Origin: Mobula hypostoma
Lineage: Eukaryota
Direction of reading: 5' to 3'
Length of the DNA stretch: 64,000 bases
Assembly (NCBI RefSeq): GCF_963921235.1
Contig: NC_086108.1
Location: 33,420,001-33,484,000 of the forward strand
Shown: piece after piece, positions 3,745-60,300 of the stretch
How positions within the stretch are numbered: the stretch's first letter is position 1
Layout of the letters: the number at the start of each line of letters is the position of its first letter
Notes under the pieces: model-generated
Seen by the model: the letters and a program-made list of their open reading frames with translations, nothing else
Told to the model about the DNA's origin: nothing
Database searches by the model: none
Position numbers and translations under genes: made by a program

Positions 3745-6723
3745 TGTCCTGGGTATGACTCTAAACTGCAACCGGTTATGAGGCTCTGATTGGGGACTTC
3801 CAGAGCTTTGGGGAAAGTGGAGTTACCTCTTAGTTATTCATTGCTCCCAGGGCCGCTCTGACCCAGAGCGATAGCACCTGCAAGAGTTTCTGCTCAGGAT
3901 ACGAGCAAAGGCCAACAGCAGATCCGGCAAGTTCAGTAACTGAACTTATGACGGAGAAGGCGGATGAGCTAGGACCTGAAATGTCAACGGCTATAGTACA
4001 GGCGGATGAACACTTGGGAAGAGAAATGGCGATTTCTTTAGTTTGCCGGACGGTAGGCAACAGCAAACCACCGTTGCTAGATACTAGGTTTCCCAGAATT
4101 TATTTGCAAAGAAAACCATGGTCAAACTCACAAAATGTATCGCACAACAACAGCATCAAGAGGATCTTCAAGACAATACTGAGGATGCTTCGCTTGGTAG
4201 GGTTGATTCTGGTCAGCAGGAGATCCCCGACTGTCATCAAGCTACTGCTCATAAAATTCAAGTAAAACAAAAGAAAATTATTGCCACTTGGAATGTAAGA
4301 ACCCTATATCAAGCAGGAAGATTGGACAATGTGATAAATGAAATGGAACGACTAAAGATCAACATCATGGGAATTAGTGAAGTTCGTTGGATAGGTGATG
4401 GAACATGTCAGAATAGAGATAAAACACTAATTTATTCTTGTGGAACATCCCATACTAGTGCAGTAGGAATCCTTATGGATGAAAACATGGCAAAAAGTGT
4501 TTTAGGACTGAGCAATATCAGAAAAGATCCTAGATGAAGATTCGAAAGACCTCCGCCTAATCAGAAATCTGTACTGGGAACAAACTGCCGCTGTAAGAAT
4601 AGATGGAGAAGTGAGTCCGTTTACGAAAATCAAGGGAGGCATTAGACAAGGGTGTGTTTTCTCCCCTGATTTATTTAATGTGTACAGTGAAACAATACTA
4701 CAAAAAATAGGAGACATCTTGGGAATCAAAGTTGGCGGTGAAAACATCAATAATTTCAGATATGCACTGTGTTAATTGCAAGTACGGAGGAAGAATTGCA
4801 AAACTTAATTGATATAGTTGTTGAAGAAAGTGCAAAAATGGGTCTATCTATGAATTGCAAAAAGACAGAATGTATGGTGATATCAAAAAAGATGGAGAAT
4901 CCTATCTGCAAGCTGAGAATAAATGGGGAAGATATAAAACAAGTACAGAACTTTTGTCACTTAGGAAGCTGGGTGACGTCAGATGGCAGGTGCGACATGG
5001 ACATCAAAAGAAGAATAGGGATGGCAAAAGACACCTTTATGAGAATGAAGAGTATACTGACCAATACTAAACTAGGCATGACAACCCACCTCAGAGTACG
5101 AAATGTTACGTTTATCCAGTTAGATTAGATTAGATTATGAGGACACACAGTCCTCTTTTATTGTCATTTAGTAATGCATGCATTAAGAAATGATACAATG
5201 TTCCTCCAGAATGATATCACAGAAACACAAGACAAACCAAGACTGAAAAACTGACAAAAACCACATAATTATAACATGTAGTTACAACAGTGCAAAGCAA
5301 TACCGTAATTTGATAAGAACAGACCATGGGCACGGTAAAAAAAAGTCTCAAAGTCTCTTGAAAGTCCCATCATCTCACGCAAATGGTAGAAGGAAGAAAA
5401 ACTCTCCCTGCCATGAGCTTCCAGCACCGCAAACTTGCCGATGCAGCACCCTGGAAGCACCCGACCACAGCCGACTCTGAATCTGTCCTAAAACTTCAAG
5501 CCTCCGAACAGCGCTCCGACACCGAGCACCGAGCACCATCTCTGCCGAGCGCTTCGATCCCGACCCCGGCAACAGGCAATAGACAAAGCCGAGGATTTGG
5601 ATCCTTCCCCTTCAGAGATTCTCAATCGCATAGTAGCAGCAGCAGCGAAGTGGGCATTTCAGAAGTTTCTCCAGATGTTCCTCCATGCTTCTCACATCAG
5701 TCTCCATCAAATCAGAATTGTGCACGGTATGTGCTTACAAATACGATATCATTTAGGAGCAGCCGCGTGCTCTGTGTCACGCTGCCATCTTCTCCTCCCC
5801 TCTAAAGAGCAGACCATGGGCACGGTAAAAAAAAGTCTCCAAGTCCTGATAGACTCATCATCTCATGCAGGTGGCAGACGGGAGGAACTCTCCCTGCCAT
5901 GAACCTCCAAGCACCACGAACTTGCCGATGTAGCACCATTGGAAGCACCCGACTGCAGCGGACTCTGAGTCCGTCCGAAAACTTCGAGCCTCCGACCAGC
6001 CCCTCTGACACAGCCTCTCCGAGCACCATCCTCTGACGAGCGCTTCTACCCCGCCCCGGCCGCCGAGCAACAAGCAAAGCCGAGGACTCGGGGCCTTCCC
6101 CACCGGAGATTTCGGACCACACAGTAGCAGCAGCAGTGAAGCAGGCATTTCAGAAGTTTCACCAGATGTTTCTCCGTGCTCTCATGTCCATCTCCATCAA
6201 ATCAGGATTGCGCACGGCACCCTACTTGACAAATAACAAACATCACTACTGGAGTGGCCGCCGCGAGCTGCGTCGCGCCGTCATCTTCTCCTCCCGCTGT
6301 TGCTTTTTTTTATATGGCTCAGAATGTTGGACAATATCTAGTAACATGAGGAAATGAATTGAAGCAGCAGCAATGTGGTTTTTGAGGAGGATGCAGAGAA
6401 TATCATGAATGAAACGAGTATCTAACGAGGATGTCATGAACAGAGCAAACACAAAAAGAGAAATAATGTGTGAGATCATGAAAAGGCAATGTAACTTCAT
6501 TGGACATGTGATTAGGAAAGAGGAGTTAGAATGCATGGTAATTATGGGAAAGATTGAAGGGAAGAAAGCAAGAGGAAGACAATGACAAATGATGATGGAG
6601 ACAGCAGCCAGAGAACTGGAAATGAATACCAATTAATTGATCCACTTGACCCAAAATAGGAGTGTGTGGGCCATGGCAGTCAAAGCTCAAACTGGGCATG
6701 GCACCTGATGATGATGATGATGA
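3745..6723 (+). mobile_element. RTE-clade LINE, internally deleted and interrupted by an insertion at about 5121-6300
   Basis: 5' UTR, then endonuclease start IATWNVRTL...GISEVRW. RT motifs LRLIRNLY, GIRQGCVFSPDLFN, INNFRYA. After the insertion: LYGSECWT, GHVIRK, GKIEGK, and a (TGA)n 3' tail at about 6706-6723. Confidence 0.9.
5121..6297 (-). mobile_element. Two tandem copies of a non-autonomous retroposon-like repeat (family A)
   Basis: Units 5121-5803 and 5806-6297 each begin on the minus strand with GGGAGGAGAAGATG. The 3' end reads AATAAAAGAGGACTG...(AATCT)n. Homologous to 11608-13912 and 29971-30622. Confidence 0.8.
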
Positions 6724-6742
6724 CCGGCTGGTAGCATTATTA

Positions 6743-7257
6743 AGGCTGATTTACACTTCTGCATCAAATGGACGCCGTAACCTACGCAAGTGGCCTACGT
6801 GCGTTGTGAGCACTTATACTTGTGTGTTGGTGTGTCTGCATCGCTCTGCAATTCGAGCACGTTGTGCATGCACACACACCTGCCAGTGCAAGGCTTCATG
6901 GTCATGGTAGTCTTTCTTGGGGTGAACAAGTTTAAAGCGAGCGTCTTTTTTCGTAAAAGCGAAATGTGTCCTCCATAATTTTGGAAGTTTATAAAGCTTT
7001 ATGGAAAGCATTTCAGCCAGAGTTCCTTCCCTGCCCTTCGGTCATCCAGTGGGAAGCTATTGCAGCGTAGGAGGAAATGTGATGCTACCAAGAGGACCAA
7101 TCACAGTTGCTGCGGTCTGCGTTACCACGACGCGTAGTTACGTTTTGGGAGAGGTGCGCATCAGGCTACAGCATAGGCGTCCGTGTAGGCTCTGCATAGG
7201 GTTTGCGGCAATGCTGTACCTACAGCATTGATTTGACGCAGAAGTATAAATCAGCCT
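6743..7257. mobile_element. PIF/Harbinger-type MITE
   Basis: 27-bp TIRs (AGGCTGATTTAYACTTCTGCRTCAAAT, 25/27 match) at 6743-6769 and 7231-7257; TTA target duplication at 6740-6742 and 7258-7260. Confidence 0.88.
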
Positions 7258-7479
7258 TTACAAGATAACTTTTAACCCAAGCACTGTCAGGCGACAGAAA
7301 ACTTTCTCTGTTGTTTTACGTAAATAAAGATTCCATCCAGGATTATTCAGGCCAATTGTGGTGCCGTGGCTTTAAAAGCCAGAAGAAAGTGAAAGTTCTA
7401 CACATTTTTGAAATGGAGGGTGGGAATAAACTGAGAAAAAATAGGTATAGATGGCTCAGTTATCAGTATATTAGAAGAT

Positions 7480-8420
7480 GTTGATCAAGTTTAATGGCAC
7501 ACCCAATGCCTCATCATCTTTTACACCGCTATCAAATCACCTCTCATCCTTCTTCTCTCCAGAGAGAAAAACACTTAACTCACTCAAACTTTCCTCAAAA
7601 GCTATGTCCTCTAATTCAGGCAGTGTCCTGGCAAATTTCCACTGCGCCCTCTCTAAAGCTTCCATATTCTTCTCATAAGATCAGATCTGAACACAACACA
7701 AAGTGTGGTCTTACCAGAGTTTTATAGAGCTGCAATATTAACTCTTGACTTCAATCCCCCAACAAATGAGGCCAGCACACTAGATGCCTCCTTAACCATC
7801 GTATCAACTCAAAGATCCCTTTGTTCCTCTACACTGCTAAGAACCTTGTGCTCTTCCATCAAGTTCCATCTTCCAAAGTGTATTAATTCACAGTTTTCCA
7901 GATTGAACATCTGCCATTTCTCCACCCAACTCTGCATCCTGTCTATACTTTATTTAAACCTCTGACAACCTTCCAGACTATCCACAATACCATCAACAAA
8001 CTACAAACTTACTAACCCATGCCTCCACCTCCTCATCCAAGTCACTTCACTTACAAAAATCACAAAGAACAGCAGTTGCAGTACTGATGCCTGTGGAACA
8101 CCACTGGTCACCGATCTACAAGCAGAGTACACTCTATCTACTACCACCCTCTGCTATCTGTGGACAAGCCAGTTTCCCATGGCTCCCTTGCTTCATAACT
8201 TCCCGGTTGATCCTTGCTAAAATCCATACATTCCACATTTACCACTCTACTTTCGTCAATTTATTTTGCCAACCCCTCGGAAAACCCAATTAGACTCATG
8301 AGACATGAACCGTCCCTCACAAAGCCCTGATAACTACCCCTAATCAGACTATGCTTCTCCAAATGCTTGTATATCCTGTCCCTAAGAATTGTCTCCAAAA
8401 TTCTGCCTTTCACTGCCTTT
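7480..8420 (-). mobile_element. Degraded CR1 RT/C-terminal fragment
   Basis: The reverse complement resembles CR1 ORF2 (SGVPQ, KWQMFN, SVEEQRDL, LYKTLVRPH). Confidence 0.7.
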
Positions 8421-9989
8421 CAGTGAGGCTCTGTATGCAGGAATATGGACCACCATTGCTGTCCACTCCATTGACTGCGATGAAATAGAGTATTTAATCA
8501 TCAATTTATGCCCAAGTCCATGTATAATGGCAACACCCTAAATGTCACAATTTACCACAAGTGTTTACTTCGGACATTTGAGAGACTTAACGTGTACCCA
8601 ATTTTTTTTTGTCGTTAGCATGAGATAAATTGATATAACTTAGTCATTCATGGGAAGCAAGTACTTTAAAGGCAAGGCTAGAATTTACTTTTTATTCCTG
8701 CTTAAGTCCTGAAACTGGGAGCACAACTAACATCACCATATTGGTGGGTCTGGAGTCACAACTGATTAATAGGCCAGACCAAGTAAGGATAATACCATTC
8801 TTTTTCTGAAACACAGAAACAGTTTGGTAGTTTGCTGGTCACTTTAACTGACAGAAAAGTTATTTCATATTTTTGTAATTACGTGAGGGATTTGAACTGT
8901 GTCTCCAGATCAGTAAATAGGGACTCAGAGTACCAAAGCAGTGATTTAATCATGGCTCCCTTGTACACCACCCAATATATCTTGTCAAATGATTATGAAG
9001 CTTTTCCCAATGCTCGACCTCCTATCACCGCGTCTCTTTCTCTTCATTGCACATAAAGCCATTTAAGTTGCTTGCAAAGTTTAAGTAAGTCTCAGCTGCA
9101 TCTCCATTGCCTGTGATACCCTAGCCTGGCTTGCATTATTTCAGTGTGCTAATCTGGCACCACGTGATTTGTTTTGCCGTCTACAATTTGCACTTATAAA
9201 CTTTAATCTGATAGAAATAGTCCAGTTTTGAGGCTGAAATTAATGGCAGGAGTCACAATCATACCACTTTAGTGCAAGATTAGGACCCCTAAGCACACTC
9301 TTCGAATATCTGAAAAAGAAGGTTTCAACCAACAATGGCTTTCAAGTTTATAATATTGCGAATTAGTACATGAATATACTGTTCCCAGTCACTAGAGTGC
9401 TGTGCATAAAATTTTCTCACCTCATTTTTATTCAAGAAGTGAGTGACAGAGGGAGGACTTTTATGCAACATTCATGCTCTTCGAACAGGTTTTCAGTAGC
9501 CAGCTGCTAGGTGAAAGAGATCAGAATGTTCCAGCACAATATTTACTGACCAACTGGTCAACAGTAACCATGGAGATCAATACATCTGCACAATGATTAA
9601 GTGTCCCTCTAATGTTTTAGAAGTTCAGGCTTGAAAGAATAGCTTTAATTTTGCAAATAAGCTACTCTAATATTGAAAATGTAAAATGTATTTTACAAAG
9701 TAATTAATTTCTCAAAATATAATATCAAATTTTTCACAGGTTGTTTTTGTTTAGATTGGTTTGCTCAAGAACAATGTGAAAAATGGAAGCGGCCACACAC
9801 GGTGCAGTTAACAATAATTGCGAAAATTCTAAAGCTGAGCTCATGTGTATGCATGACATTCTTCCACTTGATGGAGATATTGATCTTTTTATATAATTTA
9901 TTATATTTTCTTGGAAGAAAGCCCATTTGACCCTTTGTCCATGTCGCCTACGCACTCCCTTATTTTCAGTTGACCTATTCTCTTTCAAA

Positions 9990-10195
9990 AAAAACTCTTC
10001 AACTCCCCCTGATTCTCTTACCACTCAACTATGCCGGGGTAATCTATGGTGGGCAATTAACCTACTTACCGGCGCATCTTTGGGACATGGGAGGAACCTA
10101 GAGGATTGGGAAACTGCAAACCCGAGACAGATAGCAGGAGATCTGGACTGAACGCGAGTAGCTGGACATGTAAGACAGCAGCACCACGGTGCCGA
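9990..10195 (-). mobile_element. Degraded HE1/V-SINE-like SINE
   Basis: The reverse complement begins GGCACCGTGGTGCTGCTGTCTTACA and contains CTCCCATGTCCCAAAGA..GTAGGTTAATTG. Confidence 0.55.
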
Positions 10196-10882
10196 TAGTG
10201 GCTCAGACTTCGGGGCAGTAATTAGGTTGTATTATTGTCGCTTCTGCTCATGTATAACTCGCCCCTGATACTGACCTCCCTCAACCACTGAAGGGTACTT
10301 GGGGCACATGGCCTATTAACTGAGAGGTGCTTGCAGTATCACAGGTGAAGTTTGTGTTGGTTGAGTGAATTTCAGTAACGTGCTGCTGTTATGATGCAAC
10401 TTGACCTAGTTTCCCCATGTACCAGGTAATTTGCTCACTGGTGTATCCAGTGCATCAGCTGCTCTCAGTTCAGCTGAGCTGGGAGGTGCTGAACTAACTT
10501 CAAAGCTTGCTTGTTTCAATCTGGCTAACTACTGTACCCAGAGTGGACCTAAGCCATTCAGATGAGGAAGGATTCAATTCTCCTTCCTCTTCGTGAATCT
10601 CAGCCAGAACAGGAGTGAAAAGGATTGCTTCAGCCCAGGCTTTCCACCGCTGACCATGAGCTAATGAGTGTGTGCATATGTTGATTTTGGGTGAGGATAA
10701 GTTCCAAGCTTCAGACAAACAAAAAAGCTACTAATGATTTGCTTAACTCATCTAGTCTAGGGTCATACACTTGACAAAGTTACAGGAAACGCAGCCAGCA
10801 TTTGTTAAGAGAAGTGTTGTGATCCAGAATGCGTAGCTTAAAGGACTGGTGGAAGATGATTTAATAAAGCTTGAATTATGTA

Positions 10883-11416
10883 CAGTACTGTCCAAAAGTC
10901 TTATGCACATATAAAGCTAGGGTGTCTGAGACTTCTACTTAGTACTGTAGTAATTTTACGAATTGCACTGTACTGCTGCTTCACGAAAAAAGACATATTT
11001 CTTGACATATGTGAGTGATGATAAATCTGATTCTGATATGGGTCTCTGTTGTGGATTGAGAGTGGGAAAGGGGCAGGGAGAGGGGAATCATGGTTGGGAA
11101 AAATGGAAGGGAGAGGGGAGAGAGTGGGAATCACTAGAGAGACATCCTGTAATGATCAATAAACCAATTGTTTGGAATCAAATGACCTTGCCTGGTGTCT
11201 CAGTGCTGGGTGTGTCAATCCCCCTACCCCTGGCAATTCTTCACTGCCACCTGCCCCATGCCCCTCCCATGGCTTCCCACCTTTGTCCTTCACAACATCT
11301 TTGCTCCAACCAGTTTACAAACTTGCTATCTGCTCCATGTTTTAAAATAAAATACTACACAAACATCTCAGGCACCCTAGCTACATATCTGTGCTTAAGA
11401 CTTTTGCACAGTGCTG
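10883..11416. mobile_element. Tc1/mariner-type composite MITE
   Basis: TA|CAGTACTGTCCAAAAGTCTT ... AAGACTTTTGCACAGTGCTG|TA, with inverted arms of about 65 bp. Confidence 0.8.
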
Positions 11417-12132
11417 TAGTTAGCAGTGAAACCAAGACTTTACCATTAAGCTTAACAGAATCTCCTCACAGAGATCCAGGCACCTCTGAGGGACTGTTTC
11501 TCATTACTTAGGTTGATTGATGACGTATCAAAAGGAATGCCCCATGTCCAACAACCATGATGTCTTCAAACCTGACAATCATCTTGAAAAATGAAGATTT
11601 TGAAGAATGCAGCTTGCAGCGGCCACTCCGGTGGTGATGTCTGTTATTTGTCAAGTAGGGTGCCATGCACAATCCTGATTTGATGGAGACGGACGTGAGA
11701 GAATGGAGGAACATCTGGTGAAACTTCTGAAATGCCTGCTTTGCTGCTGCTGCTACTGTGTGGTCCAGAATCTCCGGAGGGGAAGGCCCCAAGTCCTCGG
11801 CTTTGCTTGTTGCTCGGCGGCCAGGGCAGGGTCGAAGCGCTCGGCAGAGGATGGTGCTTGGTGTCGAAAGTCTGGTCGGAGGCTCGAAGTTTTCGGATGG
11901 ACTCAGAGTCCGCTGCAGTCGGGTGCTTCCAGTGGTGCTGCATCGGCAGGTTTGTGGCACTTGGAGGTTCATGATGGGGAGAGTTTCTCCCTTCTACTGT
12001 CTGCGTGAGATGATGAGGCTATGGGGACTTTGAGACTTTTTTTTTACCATGCCCATGGTCTGCTCTTTATCAAATTACGGTATTGCTTTTCACTTTTGTA
12101 ACTATATGTTATATAATTATGTATATAATTAT

Positions 12133-13414
12133 ACCTAATCAGTTCCCCTCTACCACCACTCTGCTCCGTCTAGCAGAATTAGTCCTTACTCTTAATAATT
12201 TCTCCTTTTGCTCCTCCCATTTCCTCCAAACTAAAGGTGTAGCTATGGGCACCCGTATGGGTCCTAGCTATGCCTGCCTTTTTGTTGGGTTTGTGGAACA
12301 ATCTATGTTCCGTGCCTATTCTGGTATCTGTCCCCCACTTTTCCTTCGCTACATCGACGACTGCATTGGCGCTGCTTCCTGCACGCATGCAGAACTCGTT
12401 GACTTTATTAACTTTGCCTCCAACTTTCACCTTGCCCTCAAGTTTACCTGGTCCATTTCCGACACCTCCCTCCTCTTTCTAGATCTTTCTGTCTCTGTCT
12501 CTGGAGACAGCTTATCCACTGATGTCTACTATAAGCCTACTGACTCTCACAGCTATCTGGACTATTCCTCTTCTCACCCTGTCTCTTGCAAAAACGCCAT
12601 CCCCTTCTCGCAATTCCTCCGTCTCCGCCGCATCTGCTCTCAGGATGAGGCTTTTCATTCTAGGACGAGGGAGATGTCTTCATTTTTTAAAGAAAGGGGC
12701 TTCCCTTCCTCCACTATCAACTCTGCTCTTAAACGCATCTCCTCCATTTCACGTACATCTGCTCTCACTCCATCCTCCCACCACCCCACTAGGAATAGGG
12801 TTCCCCTGGTCCTCACCTACCACCCCACCAGCCTCCGGGTCCAACATATTATTCTCCGTAACTTCCGCCACCTCCAACGGGATCCCACCACTAAGCATAT
12901 CTTTCCCTCCCCCCCCTCTGCATTCCGCAGGGATCGCTCCCTACACAACTCCCTTGTCCATTCGTCCCCCCCATCCCTCCCCACTGAACTCCCTCCTGGC
13001 ACTTATCCGTGTAAGCGGAACAAGTGCTACACATGCCCTTACACTTCCTCCCTTACCACCATTCAGGGCCCCAAACAGTCCTTCCAGGTGAGGCATCACT
13101 TCACCTGTGAGTCGACTGGGGTGATATACTGCGTCCGGTGCTCCCGATGTGGCCTTTTATATATTGGTGAGACCCGACGCAGACTGGGAGACCGCTTTGC
13201 TGAACATCTACGCTCTGTCTGCCAGAGAAAGCAGGATCTCCCAGTGGCCACACATTTTAATTCCACATCCCATTCCCATTCTGACATGTCTATCCACGGC
13301 CTCCTCTACTGTAAAGATGAAGCCACACTCAGGTTGGAGGAACAACACCTTATATTCCGTATGGGTAGCCTCCAACCTGATGGCATGAACATTGACTTCT
13401 CTAACTTCCGCTAG
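12133..13414 (+). CDS. PLE RT C-terminal half plus GIY-YIG endonuclease (5'-truncated, uninterrupted frame)
   Basis: ORF track 12083..13414. The first ~17 codons come from the host repeat; the remainder has no stops or frameshifts. Confidence 0.8.
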
Positions 13415-13706
13415 GCCCCACCTCCCCCTCGTACCCCATCTGTTACTCTTTTTTATGCACACATTCTTTCTCTCACTCTCCTTTTTCTCCCTCTGTCCCT
13501 CTGAATATACCTCTTGTCCATCCTCTGGGTCACCCCCCCCCCGTCTTTCTTCCCGGACCTCCTGTCCCATGATCCTCTCGTATCCCCTTCTGCCTATCAC
13601 CTGTCCAGCTCTCGGCTCCATCCCTCCCCCTCCTGTCTTCTCCTATCATTTTGCATCTCCCCCTCCCCCTCCAGCTTTCAAATCCCTTACTCACTCTTCC
13701 TTCAGT

Positions 13707-13744
13707 TAGTCCTGACGAAGGGTCTCGGCCTGAAACGTCGACTG
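13707..13744 (+). ncRNA. Minimal type I hammerhead ribozyme in the PLE pLTR
   Basis: Sequence TAGTC-CTGACGA-AGGGTCTCGGCCT-GAAA-CG-TC-GACTG. Stem I UAGUC/GACUG, core CUGACGA and GAAA, a stem II hairpin, palindromic ACGU in place of stem III, and a UC cleavage site (cut predicted after 13739). Confidence 0.8.
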
Positions 13745-14734
13745 CGCCTCTTCCTATAGATGCTGCCTGGCCTGCTGCGTTCACCAGCAACTTTGATGTG
13801 TGTTGCTTGAATTTCCAGCATCTGCAGAATTCCTGTTGTTTGTTATAATTATGTGCTTTTGTCAGTTTTAGTCTTGGTTTGTCCTGTGTTTCTTGTGATA
13901 TCATTCTGGAGGATCAAAGAGTTGTTTTTAAGTAAGTTGAAGTCCCAACCAATATTCTTCGGTCAGCTTCCTGTTGCAAACAAGAACCAGTCTTCAGTTC
14001 TTAATGTAAATTGTGAGCCATAATCAGTCTGAAGTTAAAAGGACAGATTTACAAACAAGCAGCACTGTGTGTAGAGCACAGGACTCTGACCCACAGCACA
14101 GGGCTGACTGCACAAGAGGTGCAGTGTAAGACAATGGGGTTGCATTAATTGAGCCTGAATCAAACTGGACAGCATTGGCTAAGTTACTTGGTTCAAGGCA
14201 ATTTGCAGACCTGACTTATATTATCACTTAGCACATCAAATAGCTGATCTGTCTTATAAACGATTTCCAAATTACAAACAGTGTCTAAACAGTGACTTTA
14301 GAGTTAAATATATTCTTGATAAGCAAGTGGATAGAAGATTGCAGCAGCTAGTTAGGAGTGTGGAGTTGAGCCACGGTGTTGTTGAATAGTGAAGCAGATT
14401 CAGGGGCTGAATTGGTTAGTCCTTTTCCTAGTTTTTAGGTTTGTAAGTTTGTACAATAATGAGAAACATTTTCAGAAACCTTTTACGGCAGATACTTGAG
14501 CAACACACATAATTCCTATTTAGCCAGAGGGCAGTGCAGTGGAGACCAAGTCAGTGCCTGTACTTAAGGCAAAAGTTCATCGTTTCCTGATCGGCTCAGG
14601 CATCAAAGGAGATGGCGAGAAGGCGGGTATATGTGGTTGAGTGGGATCTGCGATCAGCTATGATGGAATGGCAGAGCAGACTCGATGGGCTGAATGGCCT
14701 AATTCTGCTCCTATGTGTTATGGTCATATGATCT

Positions 14735-16410
14735 AAGACACTGATGGAACTCAGCAAGTCAGGCAGCATCTATGAAGGGAATAAAGAGTTGACATTTCAG
14801 GCTGAGACGAGAAAGGGGCAGAGCTTTAGAATTAGAAGGTGTGGGGGGAGGGAAAGAAATACAAGATGTCAGGAGATAGGTGAGACCAGGTGAGCAGGAA
14901 GGTGGATGGGGGAGGGGTGACGAAGTAGGAAGTTGGGAGTTGACAGGTGGAAGAGATAAAAGGCTGAAGAAGGAATCTGAGAGGAGAGGACAATGAAGTA
15001 TGGAAGAAAGGGAAGGAGGAAGGAAACCAGAGGGAAGTGAAGTGCAGGTGAGGAAAAGGGGTGAGAGGATAACCAGAATGGGGAACAGAAAAAGAGGGAA
15101 GGAGGAGTGGGGAGAAATTGCCAGAATTTAGAGAAATCGATGTTCAAGCCATCAAGTTGGAGGCTAACCAGATGGATTTGTTCAGCTAACCTGAGTTTAG
15201 CCAGTTTAGAGGATCAGTCGAAGAGCCCATGGACAGACATGTCAGAATGGGAATGGAAATTTGAATTGAAATGGATAGCCCCTGGGAGGTGCAGTGCAGA
15301 CAGAGCAAAGGTACTCAACAAAGCAGGCCTCAATCTACGTCAGGTCTTACTGATGTGGACAACACCTCACTGTGAGCTCTGGATACAACGGATGACACTG
15401 ACAGACTCACAGGTGAAGCATCACCTGTTTGGGGCCCTGATGATTGTGAGGTAGGGTGTAGCACTTGCCACAGTTTCAGGGTAAATAACAGGGGTGACAG
15501 CAGTGTGGAGGTATGAGTGGATAAGAGTGTCACATAGAGAGTGATCTCACTGCAAAGCTGGGGGTGGGGTGGTTTGAGGGAAAGATGTGCCTGCTGGCGG
15601 GATCCCTTTGGAATGTTGGAAATTTTGGAGAATGACATGTTGTGTATGGAGGGGACAAGGGGGTCTCATTTCAGAAGGTGGGGGATGTGGTGAGGGCAGA
15701 GGTGTTGGAAATGGAGGAGGCATGGGTGAGGGCTGCAATGTGTAAAAAGAGGACATCTTGGATGGTCTGGAATGGTAAGCCTCATCTTGGGAACAAATGC
15801 AATGGAGACAAAGGAACTGAGAAAAGGAATAGCATTTTTACAAGTGATAGGGTGAGAAGAGGCAGAGTCGGGATAACTGTGGGAGTCAGTAGGTTTGTAA
15901 ACTGTGTTGATAGATAATCTGTCTCCAGAGGGGAACACAGAGAATTATGAAAGGGAGAGGAGTGTCAAGAGATTGACCAAGTAAATTTGAGGTCAGGTTT
16001 GAAGGTTTGGGGTAAAATTGAAAAAATTGATGAGCCTGGCATGGGTAAAGGAAGCACCATCAATGTAGTCATTGACGTAGCAGAGGAAGAGTCAGGAGTG
16101 CTGCTGGTGTAGGCCTGAACCATGGGCCTTCCCACGTAGCCAGTGGAGAGGCATGTACAGCTGGGGCCCCATGCAAGTGTCCATGGCTGCAACAGTGGGT
16201 TTGGAGAGCGTGAGAGGACCTGAAAAAGACATTGTTGATGGTCATTTCCAGTTCTGCCAGGTGGAAGTGGGGGGCAGTGTAGGGTAGCCAGTTAGGTCTG
16301 TTGTCAAGAAAGAAGCGGACAGCCTTAAGACCTTCTTGATGGTGGATGGAAGTGTACAGAGACTGAACATCCATGTTGAAATAAGGTGGCCAGGGTCAGG
16401 GAATTGAAAA
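14735..16410 (-). mobile_element. Degraded Penelope-like element
   Basis: Minus-strand ORF fragments MDVQSLYTSI, LKFTWSIS, VYKPTDSHSY and KNAIPF are homologous to the 12133 element but frameshifted. The purine-rich 3' UTR and a broken hammerhead remnant lie near 14790. Confidence 0.85.
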
Positions 16411-16758
16411 CGGCCAGTGAAGGAGTGGAGCTTTGAGGCTTTGACTCAAGAGATTCTGGCAGTTTTGGCAGTTGGTCTGTGCAATCAAATCAATCAAGAT
16501 TTGAATAGCTCAGCAGAAAGCAGGAGATTATACAATCAAGATTTGAATAGCTCAGACTCAGCAGAAAGCAGATGATTGGGCAATCGAGGTCAGGTGACCA
16601 AGCAGTTTGAAAAGCTCAAACAGATAAATGGAGGGGTAGCTCAAGCGGAGCGGCCTGTGGAAAGCGGCCAGTGAGTGAGTGGGCCAGTGAAGGAGTGGAG
16701 TTTTGAGGCTTTGACGGGAAGAGGCAAAGGACGAACTTGTTCCCAATTAGTCTTTACA

Positions 16759-17700
16759 ATGCTTCCTGAGACGGTGATGTGCCTCTCATGTGAGATGTGG
16801 CAGTCTTGGGGAAACGCCCCTCTCCTGCAGAGTCACATCTGCCAGAAGTGCATACGGCTGGGCGATCTGGAAGACCATGTAATGAATCTGGAGCAGCAGC
16901 TGGATGACCTTCGACTCATAAGGGAGAATGAGGCAGTCATAGATGAGAGCTACAGGGAGGTAGTCACACCTAGGCTGTCGGAAGCAGGTCGTTGGGTGAC
17001 AGTCAGAGGGGGGAAAGCGAAGGTGAGCAGACAGATAGTGCAGAGCACCCCTGTAGCCATTCCCCTGAATAATAAGTTTACTGTCCTGGATACTGTTGGC
17101 GGGGACGACTGACCAGGTGTGAGCCACGGTCTCAGGGCCTCCGGCACTGAGTCTGACCTGGTGATGCAGAAGGGTGGGACGGAGAAGAAGAGTGCTGTTG
17201 TCATTGGAGACTCTGTAGTCAGGGGAGCAGACAGGAGATTTTGTGGACATGAGAAGGACACCTGCATGGTTTGTTGCCTCCCGGGTGCCAGGGTCCAGGA
17301 AGTCTCTGACCGGATGCACGACATCCTGGTACGAGAGGGAAAGCAACCAGAAGTCGTGATACATGTTGGCACCGACGACATAGGCAGGAAGAGGGATGAG
17401 GTCCTGAAGTGTGAGTTTCGGGAACTAGGCAGAAGGCTGAAGAACAGGGCCTCAAGGGTGGCGTTCTCAGGATTGCTGCCAGTGCTACGTGATAGTGATG
17501 GTAAGAATTGGAGGAGTTGGCAGTAGAATGCGTGGCTGAGGAGTTGGTGCAGGGAGCAGGGTTTTAGATTTTTGGATCATTGGGATCTCTTCTGGGAAAG
17601 GGGGGACCTGTACAGATTGGATGTCTTGCACCTGAACTCAAGGAGGAGCAATATCCTTGCAGGTAGGTTTGCTAGCATGGTTCGGGAAGGTTTAAACTAA
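16759..17700 (+). pseudogene. CR1 ORF1 (CxxC...CxxC zinc finger, leucine zipper, SGNH esterase) with two in-frame stops
   Basis: CLSC...CQKC, a heptad-leucine segment LEDHVMNLEQQLDDL, VIGDSVVRG, HVGTDDIG and DVLHLN all lie in one frame. Premature stops at 17110 and 17524; terminal TAA at 17698-17700. Confidence 0.85.
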
Positions 17701-17829
17701 TTTGCAAGAGGGATGGGACCCGGAGCGATAGATCAGTGAAAGAAGTGCATGGTGTAAAGCCAGATCTAACATATATAGAGGCTTTGAGGAAAGAGAAGCA
17801 GAATAAACGGTGTAAAGGTAGTAAGGTAG

Positions 17830-20600
17830 AAGGGCTGAAGTGTGTGTACCTCAATGCAAGAAGCATCAGGAACAAAGGTGATGAACTGAGAGCTTGGATA
17901 CATACATGGAATTATGATGTAGTGGACATTACAGAGACTTGGCTGGCACCAGGGCAGGAATGGATTCTCAATATTCCTGGATTTCAGTGCTTTAAAAGGG
18001 ATGGGGGGGGAGGGGAAGAGGGGTGGCATTACTGGTCAGGGATACTATTACAGCTACAGAAAGGGTGGGTAATGAAGCCGGATCCTCCTTTGAGTCAGTA
18101 TGGGTGGAAGTCAGGAACAGGAAGGGAGCAGTTATTCTATTGGGAGTATTCTATCGGCCCCCTGGTAGCAGCAGAGATACCAAGGAGCAGATTGGGAGGC
18201 AGATTTTGGAAAGGTGCAAAAATAACAGGGTTGTTATCATGGGTGACTTTAACTTCCCTAGTATTGATTGGCACCTGATTAGTTCCAAGAGTTTAGACAG
18301 GGCAGAGTTTTTTAAGTGTGTCCAGGACGGATTCCTGTCACAGTATGTTGACAGGCCGACTAGGGGGAATGCCATACTAGATCTAGTATTCGGTAATGAA
18401 CCTGGTCAGGTCACAAATCTCTCAGTGGGTGAACATCTGGGGGACAGTGACCACTGCCCCCTGGCCTTTAGCATTATCATGGAAAAGGATAGAATAAGAG
18501 AGGGCAGAAACATTTTTAATTGGGGAAGGGCAAATTATGAGGTTATAAGGCTAGAACTTGTGGGTGTGAATTGGAATGGTGTTTTTGCAGGGAAATGTAC
18601 TATGGACATGTGGTCGATGTTTATAGATTTCTTGCAGGATGTTAGGGATAAATTTGTCCCGGTGAGGAAGATAAAGAATGGTAGGGTGAAGGAACCATGG
18701 GTGACAAGTGAGGTGGAAAATCTAGTCAGGTGGAAGAAGGCAGCATACATGAGGTTTAGGAAGCAAAGATCAGATGTGTCTATTGAGGAATATAGGGTAG
18801 CAAGAAAGGAGCTTAAGAAGGGGCTGAGAAGAGCAAGAAGGGGGCATGAGAAGGCCTTGGCAAGTAGGGTAAAGGAAAACCCCAAGGCATTCTTCAGTTA
18901 TGTGAAGAACAAAAGGGTGACAAGAGTGAAGGTAGGACCAATTAGAGATAAAGGTGGGAAGATGTGCCTGGAGGCTGTGGAAGTGAGCGAGGTCCTCAAT
19001 GAATACTTCTCTTCAGTATTCACCAATGAGAGGGAACTTGATGACGGTGAGGATGATATGAGTGAGGTTGGTGTTCTGGAGCATGTTGATATTAAGGGAG
19101 AGGAGGTGTTGGAGTTATTAAAATACATTAGGACGGATAAGTCCCCGGGACTGGACGGAATATGCCTCAGGCTGCTACACGAGGCGAGGGAAGAGATTGC
19201 TGAGCCTCTGGCTAGGATCTTTATGTCCTCGTTGTCTAAGGGAATGGTACTGGAGGATTGGAGGGAGGCGAATGTTGTCTCCTTTTTCAAAAAAGGTAGT
19301 AGGGATAGTCCGAGTAATTATAGACCAGTGAGCCTTGCATCTGTGGTGGGAAAGCTGTTGGAAAAGATTCTTAGAGATAGGATCTATGGGCATTTAGAGA
19401 ATTATGGTCTGATCAGGGACAGTGAGCATGGCTTTGTGAAGGACAGATCATGTCTAACAAGCCTGGTAGAGTTCTTTGAGGAGGTGACCAGGCATATAGA
19501 TGAGGGTAGTGCAGTGGATGTGATCTATATGGATTTTAGTAAGGCATTTGACAAGGTTCCACATGGTAGGCTTATTCAGAAAGTTAGAAGGCATGGGATC
19601 CAGAAATGTTTGGACAGGCGGATTCAGAATTGGCTTGCCTGCAGAAGGCAGAGGGTGGTGGTGGAGGGAGTACATTCAAATTGGAGGATTGTGACTAGTG
19701 GTGTCCCACAAGGATCTGTTCTGGGACCTCTACTTTTCGTGATTTTTATTAACGACCTGGATGTGGGGGTAGAAGAGTGGGTTGGCAAGTTTGCAGACGA
19801 CACAAAGGTTAGTGGTGTTGTGGATAGTGTAGAGGATTGTCAAAGATTGCAGGGAGACATTGATAGGTTGCAGAAGTGGGCTGAGAAGTGGCATATTGAG
19901 TTCAACCCGGAGAAGTATGAGGTGGTACACTTTGGAAAGACAAACTCCAAGGCAGAGTACAAAGTAAATGGCAGGATACTTGGTAGTGTGGAGGAGCAGA
20001 GGGATCTGGGGGGTACATGTCCACAGATCCCTGAAAGTTGCCTCACAGGTGGATAGGGTAGTTAAGAAAGCTTATGGGGTGTTAGCTTTCATAAGTTGAG
20101 GGATAGAGTTTAGGAGTCACGAGGTAATGATGCAGCTCTATAAAACTCTGGTTAGGCCACACTTGGAGTACTGTGTCCAGTTCTGGTTGCCTCACTATAG
20201 GAAGGATGTTGAAGCATTGGAAAGGGTATGGAGGAGATTTACCAGGATGCTGCTTGGTTTAGAGAGTATGGATTATGATTAGAGATTAAGGGAGCTAGGG
20301 CTTTACTCTTTGGAGAGAAGGAGGATGAGAGGAGACATGATAGAGGTGTACAAGATAATAAGAGGAATAGACAGAGTGGATAGCCAGCGCCTCTTCCCCA
20401 GGGCACCACTGCTCAATACAAGAGAACATGGCTTTAAGGTAAGGGGTGGGAAGTTCAAGGGGGATACTAGAGGAAAGTTTTTAACTCAGAGTGGTTGGTG
20501 CATGGAATGCACTGCCTGAGTCAGTGGAGGAGGCAGATACACTAGTGAAGTTTAAGAGACTACTAGACAGGTATATGGAGGAATTTAAGGTGGGAGGTTA
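17830..20600 (+). pseudogene. CR1 ORF2 (apurinic endonuclease + reverse transcriptase), disrupted
   Basis: Motifs YLNARSIRNK, ITETWL, GVFYRPP, GDFNFP, SDH, NYRPVSL, DFSKAFDKVPH, GVPQGSVLGP and KFADD. Frameshifts in G runs near 18005 and 20010; stops at 20097 and 20280. Confidence 0.92.
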
Positions 20601-21040: not shown

Positions 21041-21929
21041 TAAGACGATTGATTACAACAAAAAAAATTACCAAATAGCGCGGCCTGTTTAGACTAGCCA
21101 AAGCACTGAGAGAACGTTTGAGACTTCGATGTTAAGCTGTCTGTGTATAGAAACCAAGAAATATCTGCATTTTTGCAGTGTAATGATGGTGATACAATAC
21201 TTCTATTGAAAACTAACCAGTCTGAAACATTAACCCTGTTTCCCTCTCCATGGATGCTGCCTGACCTTCTGAGTATTTTCAACATTATCGATTTTTATTG
21301 CAGATTTTTAGCTTCTGTAATTTTTAAAAACTTTATATTAGGAACTTTTCATTAAATCTATAAAATGAAATCAGAGATATAAAAATTCATGTTTAGGTCA
21401 TGGAGAAAGGGCGGGGAGTAAGAGTGATTGAAAACTAAGTAGTCTTTTCAAAGAGTTTGTTAAAGGACAATTGGCTTTTGTTTTGATAGTTCTCTGTCAA
21501 AAGGGCAAAAAAAGAAATGGATGAGTGAAATCTGAAACTTAAAAAGGAAGGGCTGGGTGCAGTCAGCAAATTGGGGAAGACTCTGGAAAGAGTGAGGTAA
21601 CTTTGAACTTTCAGGTTGTTGACTTTTCAACGGAACTATGCATGTCATTATCCTAGGGCAAGAATTAAGAAAAAGAATCCCACATAAATCACTATAAAAA
21701 GTTGAGAAAAGAAATACTTAATTGACAAGATAAATCATTTGAATTGAGAGGTGATGATATGTGTTTAGTGGTAGAGAGGTTGTAAGAAGCTGTGTTCAAG
21801 TCAATGTCTATTGGCCAGAGTGCCTGCTAGGAATGTTTCCAGATGATACGTTTGTGTTCACCCTTATCACCAAAGGCACTGGCTCTTTAAAGTACATGAA
21901 GTACAACTCCATGAAAAATCCCTTGCTGT

Positions 21930-23130: not shown

Positions 23131-24509
23131 CTGGTTCTAATGGCATAATCAATTGTCTTACTCCGACATGTGATCAGGTGGCAATAGGGTACTGCCGAGC
23201 TGGCACATTTATTGCTGCAGTGTTTGGTGAACAGTTTGGGCATGCAGTAACCACCCAGTGAGTGGAGGTGGAGGCTTGGAAAATTGTGGGAATACCATTG
23301 AAACTGCCACATTGCAATTGTGACATTAATTACCCTGAATTGTCTCTTCTGGAATTGTGGAATTATGTCCTGCCATTGTTGCCAGGCAACGGAACCTGGA
23401 AAAGACTCAAGATTTAGAGTCAACTCTTGAACAGAAGCTGCTTCAAATTTCGCATGCAATATAATCTGTTGCCAAATAAATGCAAAATCAGGAAATTAAA
23501 TTATGGATAAGTCAAATCAAAGGCCCTCCATTTGTAGCATCATGCAATTTTTGGCAGTTCAAGAAGACATGCCTCCACCTCTTCTAGTCAATAAATAGGG
23601 CCACAGCCTAATTGTGATATAAAATAGCTCAACACAGAGAAATAAAAAGAGAAAAACAAAACCAGCCGTCTCACAGCTTCCATCTTCTCTGCAACATGCA
23701 ACTAACTTGTTTTTCCTCTTTTCAAGTTCTGACAACTTGACATGTTAACTCTTTTTCTCTTTCCACAGACTTGATGAGTGTTTCCAGCACATTCTGGTTC
23801 TCTTTCAGTACATGTGAAAAGGTTTAATACTCTTTGAAGTATTTTCTTACTCCAGTGAGTCACATACAGTATTCTCCAGAGCACAGATAGAGCAATGTAA
23901 ACTTCTAGAAACAGATGATTTGGGTTGGGTGAGAGGCTAATAAAATTATTTTTGGTATATTGCAGAGTCCAAAGGATCAAGGTTGCCCTCCTGATACCAC
24001 AACTGTAGTCCACCTCTGCCCTGCAATCCCCTCCCAGATCTTTGTGATTGGTTCCTGGAATTGACACTGCCTTGACAAGTTATATGGGTACAAAATTCTC
24101 TCTAATTCTGGACTGAGAAAGAGGAGGGCAGGGGAATAGGAGAGGGAGGGTGAGAGCTAAATAGGATTGGGGAAAGCCAGAGGGTGGGGGAGAGAACTGG
24201 GGGAGGTGGAAGCGAGAGGGAAGGAAGTGAGAGGCCTCATGCAAAGGGATGCGAGAGTGTGTGTGAGGAGGGAGTAGTGAGAAAAGAGAGCAAAAAGAGA
24301 ATGGAAAAAAGAGAGACTTGATGCTCCATTTTCAGGAAACCAGATATCAACGAAAATGAAGTATTGAAGGATTAAAGAAGACTGAAACAATTAAAGAAAT
24401 GAAAGACTGAGGAAAATGAACACAGCAAGACTCAACACACGACAATGAGACATTTGATTAGAACATCACTTACTGTGAGTTAGCTGTAATGGCCAGGATA
24501 CTGTAAGTT

Positions 24510-25892: not shown

Positions 25893-26610
25893 GCAGGATA
25901 CTTGGTAGTGTGGAGGAGCAGAGGGATCTGGGGGTACATGTCCACAGATCCCTGAAAGTTGCCTCACAGATGGATAGCATAGATAAGAAAACTTATGGGG
26001 TGTTAGCTTTCATAAGTCGAGGGATAGAGTTTAAGAGTCGCGATGTAATGATGCAGCTCTATAAAACTCTGGTTAGGCCACACTTGGAGTACTGTGTCCA
26101 GTTCTGGTCATCTCACTATATGAAGGATGTGGAAGCATTGGAAAGGGTACAGAGGAGATTTACCAGGATGCTGCCTGGTTCAGAAAGTATGCATTATGAT
26201 CAGAGATTAAGGGAGCTAGGGCTTTACTCTTTGGAGAGAAGGAGGATGAGAGGAGACATGATAGAGGTGTACAAGATAATAAGAGGAATAGATAGAGTGG
26301 ATAGCCAGCGCCTCTTCCCCAGGGCACCACTGCTCAATACAAGAGGACATGGCTTTAAGGTAAGGGGTGGGAAGTTCAAGGGGGATATTAAAGGAAGGTT
26401 TTTTACTCAGAGAGTGGTTGGTGCGTGGAATGCACTACCTGAGTCAGTGGTGGAGGCAGATACACTAGTGAAGTTTAAGAGACTACTAGACAGGTATATG
26501 GAGGAATCTAAGGTGGGGGCTTATATGGGAGGCAGGGTTTGAGGGTCGGCACAATATTGTGGGCCAAAGGGCCTGTACTGTGCTTTACTGTTCTATGTTC
26601 TATGTTCTAT
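25893..26610 (+). mobile_element. 5'-truncated CR1, same young family as 16410-20682
   Basis: Nearly identical to 19970-20680. ORF2 C-terminus is open to 26542; (TTCTATG)n tail. Confidence 0.93.
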
Positions 26611-29970: not shown

Positions 29971-30622
29971 ATTATTATTATTATGATTATGAAGACACGC
30001 AGTCCCCTTTTATTGTCGTTTAGTAATGCATGCATTAAGAAACGTTAAAAATGTTTTTCCAGAATGATATCACGAAAACACATGACAAACTGACTTAAAA
30101 ACTAACAAAAAACACATAATTATAACATATAGTTACAACAGTGCAAAGCAGTACCGTAATTTGATAAGTACAGACCATGGCACAGTAAAAGTCACAAAGT
30201 CTCTCGAAAGTCCCATCATCTCATGCAGATGGTAAACCTCCAGCGCCGCCAACTTGCCGATGCAGCATCCCGGAGGCATCCGACCACAGTCCGACTCCGA
30301 GTCCGTCCGAAAACTCCGAGCCTCCGACCACCTCTTTGACACCGAGCACCGAGCACCATCTCTGCCGAGCATTTCGACCCGGCCCCAGTAACTGGTGATA
30401 CACAAAGCCGAGGATTTGGGCCCTTCGTCTCCGGAGATTCTCGATCGCACAGTAGCAGCGGCAGCAAAGCAGGCATTTCAGAAGTAACTCCAGATGTTCC
30501 TCTGCGCTTCTCACGGCTGTCTCCATCAAATCCGGATTGTGCACGGCCCCTAGTTAAACATATCGATATTCATTCGGAACGGCCGTGCGCACTGCGGCGC
30601 GCCGCCATCTTCACCTCCCTCC
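29971..30622 (-). mobile_element. Family A repeat, complete copy
   Basis: Colinear with 5121-5803; ends GCCGCCATCTT on the plus strand; ATT-rich tail. Confidence 0.85.
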
Positions 30623-31918: not shown

Positions 31919-33122
31919 CATAGAAACATAGAAAACCTACAGCACAATACAGGCCTTTCAGCCCATGAAGTTGTGCCGAACATGTCCCTACCTTAGAAAT
32001 TACTAGGGGTACCCATAGCCCTCTATTTTTCTAGGCTCCATGTACCTATCCAAAAGTCTCTTAAAAGACCCTATTGTATCTGTCTCCACTGCCGTTGCCG
32101 GCAGCCCATTCCACGCACTCACCACACTCTGCGTAAAAAACTTACCTCTGACATCTCCTCTGTACCTACTCCCAAGAACCTTAAACCTGCGCCCTCTTGT
32201 GGCAGCCATTTCAGCCCTGGGAAAAAGCCTCTGACGATCCACACGTTCAATGCCTTTCATCATCTTATACGCCTCTATCAGGTCACCTCTCATCCTCCGT
32301 CGCTCCAAGGAAAAAAGGCCGAGTTCACTCAACCTGTTTTCATAAGGCATGCTCCCAATCCAGGCAACATCCTTGTAAATCTCCTCTGCACCCTTTCTAT
32401 GGTTTCCATATCCTTCCTGTAGTGAAGCGACCAGAACTGAGCACAGTACTCCAAGTGGGGTCTGACCAGGGTCCTATATAGCTGCAACATTACCTCTCAG
32501 CTCCTAAATTCAGTTCCACGATTGATGAAGGCCAATACACTGTATGCTTTCTTAACCACAGAGTCAACCTGCACAGCTGCTTTGAGCGTCCTATGGACTT
32601 GGACCCCATGATCCCTCTGATCCTCCACACTGCCAAGAGTCTTACCATTAATAATATATTCTGCCATCATATTTGACCTACCAAAATGAACCACTTCACA
32701 CTTATCTGGGTGGAACTGCATCTGCCACTTCTCAGCCCAATTTTGCATCCTATCAATGTCCTGCTGTAACCTCTGTCAGCCCTCCACACTATCCACAACA
32801 CCCTTTGTATCATCAGAAACTTACTAACCCATCCCACCATTTCCCCCTCCAGGTCATTTATAAAAATCATGAAGAGTAAGGGTCCCAGAACGATCCCTGA
32901 GGCACAACATTGGTGACCGACCTCCATGCAGAATATGACCCCTCTACAACCACTCTTCGCCTTTTGTGGGCAAGCCAGTTCTGGATCCGCAAAGCAATGA
33001 CCCTTGGATCCCATGCCTCCTTACTTTCTCAATAAGCCTTGCATGGGCTACCTTATCAAATGCCTTGCTGAAATCCATTAACACTACATCTACTGCTCTT
33101 CCTTCATCAATGTGTTTAGTCA
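31919..33122 (-). mobile_element. 5'-truncated CR1 (RT to 3' tail)
   Basis: Minus-strand peptides DFSKAFDKV, WAEKWQMQF and ELGLFSLERRRMRGDLIE; tail catagaaacatagaaa. Confidence 0.9.
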
Positions 33123-42999: not shown

Positions 43000-44700
43000 G
43001 AATACCTGCAGACCATCTGGAAAATGTAAGGTGAAGAACCAGAAGTTGTGGCTCATTTTGCCCTGAGATTAGGGAGAGAGGGAAGAGGATGATAAACATG
43101 ATTTTGCAGGCAATAATCTCAGGATTATTGCCCATGTTACATATGTCTATAGAAATTAGAGTATAGAGCAGGTAAATGTGTGGCTGGAGAGATAGTGTAA
43201 CAGAGGGAGCGACCTGTTTCTGGGGTAGTGGTAATTGGACAATTCGGATAGGTCATATCTGCAGAGCCAGCACTGACATCCCTGAGGGAGGGATTTTCTT
43301 GTTCAGGAGGGGAGGTCTCAATCAGCTTGACAAAGGAATGGGAACCTTGAAATCTGGAAGGATGGAAATGAACAGGGAGGTGAAGATTGACTGTAATGAG
43401 ACAGCAATAGTAAAGTCAAAGAGTAAAGCATGGGGAGGGAGTGAAAATACAAAAAAAATCTAGTGATGGAATTAAATGCACTGCATCTGAATGCTCACAA
43501 CATTCACAACAAGGCAAATTAAATTCAAATAATTCCCTAAAGCATAGGAGGCTATTTGTCACTGAGATTTGCCAAATCTCAGAGCATCTCCATCAATGCC
43601 ATTCCCTCACTTATTTTCTGTGCCCTGTTTTCTCTTATATGTTTTTCATCAACACTGCGATTCATCCATCAGTCATCCAATCATGGGAGTTTACAGCAGT
43701 CAATGAACACATCAAGCTGCACATTATTAGGATGCCGGGTAAACTCAGGCATTGTGGAGAAACCCCATACAGATGGAAGTACAAGCACTACACAGACATG
43801 GAGGCTAAGATCAAGCCTGGATCATCGAAGCACATTATGCCACACATAATTAACATGAAAATGCAAGTAAATGTGTATGATCAAATTGCCATTAAGGATG
43901 GAGGATGATTAAAGCTGGGAATTAAATATTCCATGGTATTCAACATTTATGACATGCAAACAAAATGGTAAGCTCCACCCACAAAATGTTGGAGGAACTC
44001 TGCAGGTTAGGGAGCATCCATGGAAAAGAGTAAACAGTTGACTTTCTGGGCCAAGAGCTTTTGTTAGGACTAGAAAGGAAGGGGTGGGGGAGACCCCAGA
44101 ATAAAAAGGTGGGAGGAGGGGAAGGAGGATAGCTAGGTGGTGATAGGTGGAGCCAGGTGGGTAGGAAAGGTCAAAGGCTGGATAGCAAGGAACTGATAGG
44201 AGAGGAGAGTGGAAACAAAATGGTATGCAATATCAATATTAACAAGGGAGGAGATCTAAGCAGTGGTGAGAAATTATCTTGATTTGACAGATCATGATGT
44301 AGAACTAGAAATAAATTAGAGTTGAGCTAGGTAAATAACAAAGAGTAGAAACTATTGGTAGAAATTAATTATAGGTGACCAATTAGTATTCGCAATATTG
44401 GACACAACATAAAGTAGGAAAGTAGATGTGCGTGTATGGAGGAAATTAGTGGACATTTTAACATACGGACAGACTGGGGGAAGCGAGATTGCTGTGATAA
44501 ACTAAAAGAGGGATTTGTGGAATATATTTCAGACACCTTTGCAAATTAATATGATGTGGAACCAACTAGTGGAAAGGCTATTTAGATCTTGTTTTATGCA
44601 AAGAGAAATGGTTAATTAATAACTTTGATATCCTGGACATTTGGGAAAGAGGGATCTAATATGATAGAATTTAATATTCAGTTTGAAAATGTTGCGTTTC
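43000..44700 (+). mobile_element. Highly degraded CR1 ORF1/endonuclease, interrupted by other repeats
   Basis: Remnants resemble KCxxLNAxxI, ELNIPxY and VEPTSGKAILDL. A PLE 3' fragment is inserted at about 43975-44215. Confidence 0.5.
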
Positions 44701-59789: not shown

Positions 59790-60300
59790 CCACAGAAAGT
59801 ACTGGAGGAACTCAGCAGTTCAGACAGTATCTAAGCAGTGGAGTAAACAGTTGACGTTTTTGGGGGTCAGACCCTTCCTCAAGACTGGAAAGGAAGGCAG
59901 CAGAGGCCAGAATAAGAAGGCAAGCAAATTGATAGGTAAGACCGGGTAAGGGAGAAGGTAGTTGCATGTGGGAGGCGTGGAATGAAGTAAGGAGCTGGGA
60001 GGTGATAGGTGGAAGTGGTAAAGGGCTGAAGAAGAAGAAATCTGATAGGAGAGGAGAATGGGCCCTGGGAGAAAGGGAAGTTGGTAGGGCACCAGAGGGA
60101 GGTGATGTGCATGAGAGAAGGAAGGTGAGAGGAGAGCCAGAATGGGGAATGGATAAAGAGAGAAAAGGAATCGGGGAGTGAAATTACCAGAAGTTACAGA
60201 AATCAATGTTTATGCCATCAGATTGAAGGCTACCCAGTGTTGCTCCTCGCCACGTTGTGGCAGTAAAGGAGGCTTGAGACTCACATTTCAGAATGGGATG
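59790..60300 (-). mobile_element. PLE 3' end/pLTR fragment (others at about 290-530, 34125-34330 and 43975-44215)
   Basis: Reverse complement of the 13300-13800 region, including a mutated hammerhead CAGTC-TTGAGGA-AGGGTCTGACCCCC-AAAAACGTC-AACTG. Confidence 0.75.

Follow-up and report, generated by a model that had tools for sequence, protein, structure and literature searches.

A minimal type I hammerhead motif in the 3' pLTR of a truncated Penelope-like element with Neptune features in the ray Mobula hypostoma

The locus discussed here raises the question of whether the 38 nucleotides at 13707-13744 (+) belong to the hammerhead ribozymes carried by Penelope-like elements (PLEs) and, if so, whether this copy can be expected to cleave RNA. 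Coordinates are those of the window, which is the whole stretch of 64,000 nucleotides of Mobula hypostoma DNA that was analysed.

Anatomy of the motif and its score

Read from sequence, the segment is a minimal type I hammerhead with a 5-bp stem I, an intact core and an ACGU palindrome that replaces stem III. Its parts are the following (supporting evidence in brackets).

13707-13711 (+): 5' strand of stem I, pairing with 13740-13744 (sequence, folding, covariance model)
13712-13719 (+): catalytic core C3-A9 (13712-13718) and an extra unpaired nucleotide, A13719 (sequence)
13720-13731 (+): stem II, 13720-13723 pairing with 13728-13731 as G-U, G-C, G-C and U-G around a 4-nt loop (folding)
13732-13739 (+): GAAA core strand (G12-A15.1, 13732-13735), ACGU palindrome (13735-13738) and C17 (13739) (sequence)
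13740-13744 (+): 3' strand of stem I (sequence, folding)

The original prediction had described a complete catalytic core, a stem I closing around the cleavage site and a stem III reduced to the palindrome ACGU. Direct reading confirms all three at the positions listed, stem I being composed of four Watson-Crick pairs and an outer U-G. The stem II hairpin that it had also described is present, with four base pairs, and its details can be refined. Position 11.1 is U, which makes the core-adjacent pair a wobble, G13720-U13731, in place of G10.1-C11.1, and A13719 is left unpaired in the favoured register (folding probability 0.96), the slipped register being ruled out at 0.02. A second palindrome of 6 nt, at 13737-13742, spans the cut site. 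The scissile bond is presumably 13739/13740, by established hammerhead numbering.

The core-plus-palindrome pattern occurs once in the 64-kb window and in none of 100 dinucleotide shuffles. A covariance model built from 36 other motif families and trained without the window gives the site 37.7 bits (E 1.9e-8, a rough value); the next-best score in the window, 16.8 bits, belongs to a decayed relative on the minus strand, and scores elsewhere are at most 11 bits. The covariance-model check proposed with the original prediction therefore had a divided outcome, positive with this model and negative with Rfam, which returned no hammerhead match up to E 10 within 5000-20000. The absence of an Rfam match there, together with a folding stability of the 38-mer no better than that of shuffles (z -1.24), is what a chance resemblance to a hammerhead would predict. 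Set against it are the pattern counts in shuffles, the model score, the expected location behind a PLE ORF and the fit to the published consensus. With the stem I pairing and covariation described below, the shuffles, model score and consensus fit already refute this reading, which is given practically no weight, and we regard it as close to certain that the motif is of genuine hammerhead lineage.

The host element and its other copies in the window

The motif lies in a 5'-truncated PLE inserted into a host repeat.

12108-12133 (+): left copy of an imperfect target duplication of ~13 bp (12108-12122) and AT-only filler (comparison with two uninterrupted host-repeat copies)
~12134-13841 (+): 5'-truncated Penelope-like retroelement with Neptune features, ~1.7 kb (flanks matching the interrupted host repeat; ends of contig alignments)
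12134-13414 (+): C-terminal half of the ORF, running from the RT core (YIDD) to the thumb, a Cx4Cx2C linker and a GIY-YIG endonuclease (open frame)
13415-13706 (+): pyrimidine-rich 3' UTR or pLTR body, in which CAG at 13703-13705 resembles a splice acceptor (sequence, folding)
13745-13841 (+): 3' terminal segment, or tail, after the ribozyme; rejected as a structured element, its hairpins being no better than shuffles (z ~-1)
13842-13854 (+): right copy of the target duplication, after which the host repeat continues (host-repeat comparison)

The interrupted host repeat is unclassified and ~500 bp long (11609-12133 and 13842-13916), with copies at 5199-6271 and 30058-30555 that are 76-91% alike.

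The frame of 427 codons is open. It lacks the N-terminal part and represents about half of a protein of 800-900 aa; the layout is that of EN+ PLEs (a single ORF with RT plus a C-terminal GIY-YIG domain), with the 5' half absent from this copy. Pfam detects the GIY-YIG domain at E 8e-4, a match that falls short of the curated cut-off. Identity to the ORF reaches 54% among full-length relatives, which measure 750-950 aa. The best protein match, at 94% identity, is from M. hypostoma itself, and among the matches listed those from Hypanus reach 71-89% and the top shark ones 62-70%. The Cys-rich linker corresponds to residues 294-302 of the translated frame. A CX2-5CxxC linker between RT and EN marks Neptune and Nematis, according to the section of PMC8557442 drawn on here. 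The assignment as Neptune-type is one by features, namely this linker and the likeness of the ribozyme to an Acropora Neptune entry. Pieces of this PLE are incorporated in a number of gene models from rays and sharks. One such model, the Stegostoma protein P0131, reads through the pLTR and ends in LMKGLRPKR, the translated hammerhead core of the family, which suggests, by its codons, that the motif is kept in sharks too.

Counted from the stop of the RT/GIY-YIG frame, the motif begins 293 nt downstream, and the right end of the family follows it after another 97 nt. Its placement at the 3' end of a Penelope element thus holds as regards the 3' pLTR, while the motif lies inside the end and not at it. 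Family contigs stop aligning at 13841/13842 and continue into unrelated AT-rich flanks (69 in run X1, 27 + 49 in run X5; agreement ~0.4); since this is seen in two runs, the right end is confirmed. The qualification of the element as young is reasonably supported by the open frame, the visible target duplication and a divergence of at least 18 of 802 positions (at least 2.2%) from the majority letter of the closest run, a hand count over 40 of 180 variable rows. The element would be young relative to the other copies in the window and not brand new.

A search with nhmmer yields eight other relatives of the element 3' end in the window, six of them above the inclusion threshold, and two more come from the repeat listing. 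Every core among these ten is mutated or deleted, several at CpG sites, and the statement that the window holds a single intact monomer stands. The relics are as follows.

14732-16092 (-): degraded copy of a related PLE, older than the young one and pointing towards it, with 64% identity over ~1.1 kb
21180-21310, 23700-23815, 33165-33310, 34100-34240, 43950-44095: PLE 3'-end relics, cores broken
46615-46750, 57070-57200, 59765-59910, 61220-61340: further PLE 3'-end relics, cores broken

The nine relics listed beside the inverted copy correspond to about one family tail per 6 kb of window. A relaxed core scan of the window finds four other core-like strings, none of which is followed by the palindrome. 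Because no plus-strand relic keeps the palindrome, the window is without a cis partner for the motif. The inverted element at ~14740-16100 was considered as a dimer partner and rejected; it lies on the opposite strand and has lost the 5' half of its core. Other repeats in the window comprise a LINE-type element at 17996-20056 (+), with AP endonuclease and RT domains and an open frame of 686 aa, pieces related to it near 25900-26540, 32040-33120 and 7690-8400, and a degenerate A/C-rich tandem repeat with a period of ~50 bp at 528-1135.

Related motifs in other organisms and in the ray family

Related motifs were gathered by core pattern. The 78 matches, less two dropped for short flanks, gave 76 loci (74 metagenome, 2 genome) that were collapsed to 36 families. 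Pairing is put to the test only in stem I and at the fourth pair of stem II, the remainder (core, palindrome, three pairs of stem II and a single purine) being prescribed by the pattern. A relative of the window ORF was detected by tblastn at 19 of the 76 loci and lies upstream on the same strand in all 19. Pair 2 of stem I is Watson-Crick in 29 of the 36 families (shuffled mean 10.2) and uses four pair types. The corresponding counts are 19 for pair 3 (shuffled 9.3) and 17 for pair 1 (shuffled 12.2), which is unpaired in 16 families, and pairs 4-8 are at chance level across the 36 families. No stem I position is enriched in a viral control of 25 families, drawn from 50 matches to a looser pattern that behave as chance. 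The covariation score is 0.325; shuffles give 0.154 (none of 500 reaches the observed value), slid registers never exceed 0.164, and eight double changes are seen at the fourth stem II pair; two of five covariation measures are within the shuffled range. The covarying families come from other organisms, and their kinship, only partly removed, may inflate these numbers. The pair G10.1-C11.1 is present in 32 families and G-U in four.

An ORF-based search of metagenome contigs gave 145 pattern matches, none of them confirmed, and a ray-specific pattern had no match among genome contigs and viral contigs. Some of the gathered loci have noteworthy arrangements. Head-to-head hammerhead pairs on opposite strands are found at L096:660-738 and L113:1942-2018, an inverted-pLTR arrangement known for PLEs, and in L123 the motif is between an upstream EN and a downstream RT, as in a tandem unit. 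At L125:1023-1049 a PLE hammerhead with an upstream EN-like match is carried by a contig of 1.1 kb that is probably a eukaryotic contaminant of the bacterial metagenome-assembled genome to which it is assigned.

The ray family itself was compared in four sequencing runs (X1, X5, X9 and X19) as contigs, which are of guessed RNA or DNA status and give no strand, level or RNA ends; depth was not used. The family is abundant, with 18,710 contigs of X1 and 89,646 of X19 on a stretch of 861 nt. No variable position falls in the motif among 40 of the 180 rows (P 0.14; 0.09 for the non-coding part), which is not significant and is only suggestive of conservation of the motif within the ray family. The covariation check proposed with the original prediction is thereby positive for stem I in the 36 families of other organisms and suggestive for the ray family. 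Position 13731 is absent from those 40 rows, and U11.1 may be either CpG decay in this copy or a common allele. In more distant contigs, alignment ends cluster at the motif edges 13708 and 13744 (9 and 13 in X9; 352 and 370 in X19). Ends cluster at 13113 and at 13408/13409 too, so that such clusters are not unique to the motif. Run X5 has a strand-switch joint between 13709 and 13751 and 22 contigs that begin aligning at 13709 with unrelated flanks, and the 5' edge of the ribozyme is possibly a hot spot of truncation or inversion. No contig ends cluster at 13739/13740 among 24 of 2,146 loose-end rows; the contigs are uninformative on cleavage.

Likeness to published hammerheads, predicted folding and possible role

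Minimal hammerheads in the pLTRs of metazoan PLEs were described by Cervera and de la Pena in 2014 (PMC4209133). The comparison made here covers part of that source, and within it the architecture matches what the original prediction had taken as established, that PLE pLTRs carry palindromic minimal type I hammerheads of the dimer type. The window motif fits the >80% consensus (Fig. S3) at all positions except 11.1. It shares with the class the core CUGANGAH, the additional nucleotide that PLE minimal hammerheads typically have between 9 and 10.1, a short stem I, H17, a U-rich upstream sequence, a palindrome at 15.1-16.1 and the lack of a stable stem III. G10.1-C11.1 is highly conserved in the class and not obligatory, several representatives having U11.1. 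A single 3' motif in a 5'-truncated element is also what most rows of Table S1 report. The closest entry among those listed is the Neptune element of Acropora digitifera, with the same core, stem II start and palindrome and of one type with motifs in the set gathered here, and stem II has 4 bp in the window motif versus 7-8 in the Schistosoma (S. mansoni) families. Judged by sequence, the motif belongs to this published class in each defining feature that is open to testing, its U at 11.1 being a known variant.

The small PLE hammerheads of Lunse, Weinberg and Breaker likewise have a very short stem III that is palindromic and are proposed to cleave as dimers, a likeness taken from the review description alone (the pertinent part of PMC6765202). 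The catalytic core and type I topology are those of canonical type I hammerheads and of non-LTR retrozymes. Unlike these, the motif has no tandem array, no recognisable loop-loop tertiary contacts, no Rfam match and a coding PLE attached; a single monomer on a coding element differs from the non-coding tandem repeats with a hammerhead per unit that define non-LTR retrozymes. Retrozymes derived from PLE pLTRs are reported for the one chondrichthyan sampled in bioRxiv 10.64898/2026.07.22.740005, as far as the accessible part of that preprint goes. The species lists consulted from PMC4209133 include no shark, skate or ray, and PMC12602865 is without hammerhead or pLTR text. No ray PLE hammerhead was described in the literature searched, with subscription papers, repeat databases and preprint supplements, which may list ray or shark families, outside its scope.

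Folding was evaluated with nearest-neighbour energies, which ignore the tertiary core. The best fold of the 38-mer pairs core positions G5-G8 with the cleavage-site strand. Two 38-mers favour a non-hammerhead duplex (-30.3 versus -11.5 kcal/mol), to which the 6-nt palindrome across the cut site contributes, being more stable than ACGU (-7.5 versus -1.7 kcal/mol). Once at least 14 nt of native upstream sequence are included, neither stem I nor stem II is predicted with a probability above 0.04, since the core and stem II are then paired with 13693-13705. Monomer, dimer and native context are all predicted to prefer inactive structures, and this shortened copy is probably inactive. The proposal that it could cleave as a dimer is a prediction weaker than originally stated, owing to the G10.1-U11.1 wobble, the missing cis partner in the window and the competing folds. 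The literature search gave no usable measured effect of G10.1-U11.1; the wobble need not be fatal, as U11.1 occurs in several published representatives and in the four families noted above. In the available account of the published minimal hammerheads, monomers were not cleaved and dimers and trimers were cleaved at a low level (PMC4209133). For the isolated motif, the balance tips slightly towards measurable dimer cleavage in vitro.

Activity in vivo would require that this copy be transcribed, perhaps in a host transcript, pair in trans with RNA of other copies and cut after 13739. Its core nucleotides and palindrome are all intact and the family is abundant, as such activity would demand. 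The collapse of stems I and II in native context and the competing 38-mer and duplex folds argue against it, as does the Poseidon element of Anolis carolinensis (PAc), for which the part of Frangieh et al. 2024 covered here reports no RNA-seq reads ending at the cut site (PMC11167929). Cleavage of the locus at a meaningful rate in vivo is considered improbable, and so, to the same degree, is trans pairing as its route.

The inhibitory upstream pairing could also be read as a switch in which 13693-13705 locks the core until splicing to the CAG at 13703-13705, a nearby transcript start or a protein frees the ribozyme. For an RNA that begins at 13706, stem I recovers to a predicted probability of 0.23-0.96, and five decayed ray relatives have a pyrimidine tract with AG ahead of the core; the intron of the Drosophila (D. 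virilis) Penelope ends at the 5' end of helix I, in the relevant part of PMC4209133. The AG is conserved because it is also part of stem I, however, and in comparison with shuffles the anti-core pairing falls short of significance (p 0.058). An RNA starting at 13710 has its stem I destroyed in the folding, and no GT..AG joint lands at 13706 or 13710 among 15 of the 544 joints listed. The anti-core hairpin was also rejected as a conserved PLE feature, being seen in four of the 36 other families. Such gating is held to be very improbable. If true, a vertebrate retrotransposon would have a ribozyme gated by RNA processing, reminiscent of the intron boundary in D. virilis Penelope, and the in vivo role of PLE hammerheads could be studied well in the abundant ray family.

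In a further reading, the motif owes its retention chiefly to a protein-binding or structural role in cis for the PLE ribonucleoprotein, cleavage being secondary, protein-assisted and monomeric. It draws on PAc, whose hammerhead, in the portion of PMC11167929 considered, cleaved only with the PLE protein and was dispensable for insertion in vitro, which catalytic mutants left unaffected; Naiad elements, moreover, thrive without canonical hammerheads in the portion of PMC8557442 considered. The two elements are alike in having a pLTR hammerhead, copies that end ~100 nt further downstream and AT-rich targets; in PAc these ends are where reverse transcription starts, downstream of the ribozyme. 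PAc nevertheless belongs to a different PLE clade, no Cys linker being described for Penelope/Poseidon in the sources covered, and its ORF starts within stem II, whereas here the only nearby ATG (13759) opens 16 codons. The conserved palindrome of published PLE hammerheads, at 15.2-16.2, argues for pairing between monomers, and cleavage of dimers and trimers with inactive monomers, as given in the same part of PMC4209133, also opposes a monomeric cis element. This reading is judged unlikely, though it deserves some weight.

We favour, with good confidence, the reading that the motif was inherited as the pLTR hammerhead of a ray Penelope family of Neptune type and is a passive passenger at this locus. 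Following the literature, tandem source elements would give rise to read-through RNA with one monomer per unit; two monomers would join through ACGU, completing stem III, probably with the element's protein, and each would cut slowly after C17, leaving 2',3'-cyclic-phosphate and 5'-OH ends. At this locus, reverse transcription would have begun ~100 nt downstream of the motif and ended 1.7 kb later, carrying the ribozyme along passively into a solitary truncated insertion. Cutting in vivo would here be rare or nil, given the occluding folds and the lack of a cis partner, and any function would lie with tandem source elements elsewhere.

Other vertebrates have published counts of thousands of such motifs per genome (~4,000 for the coelacanth and ~9,000 for Xenopus tropicalis, taken from PMC4209133), and a single copy therefore matters little. 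The locus adds a ray example to the known PLE hammerheads, whose in vivo role would be better addressed with the tandem source elements of the family than with a solitary truncated copy.
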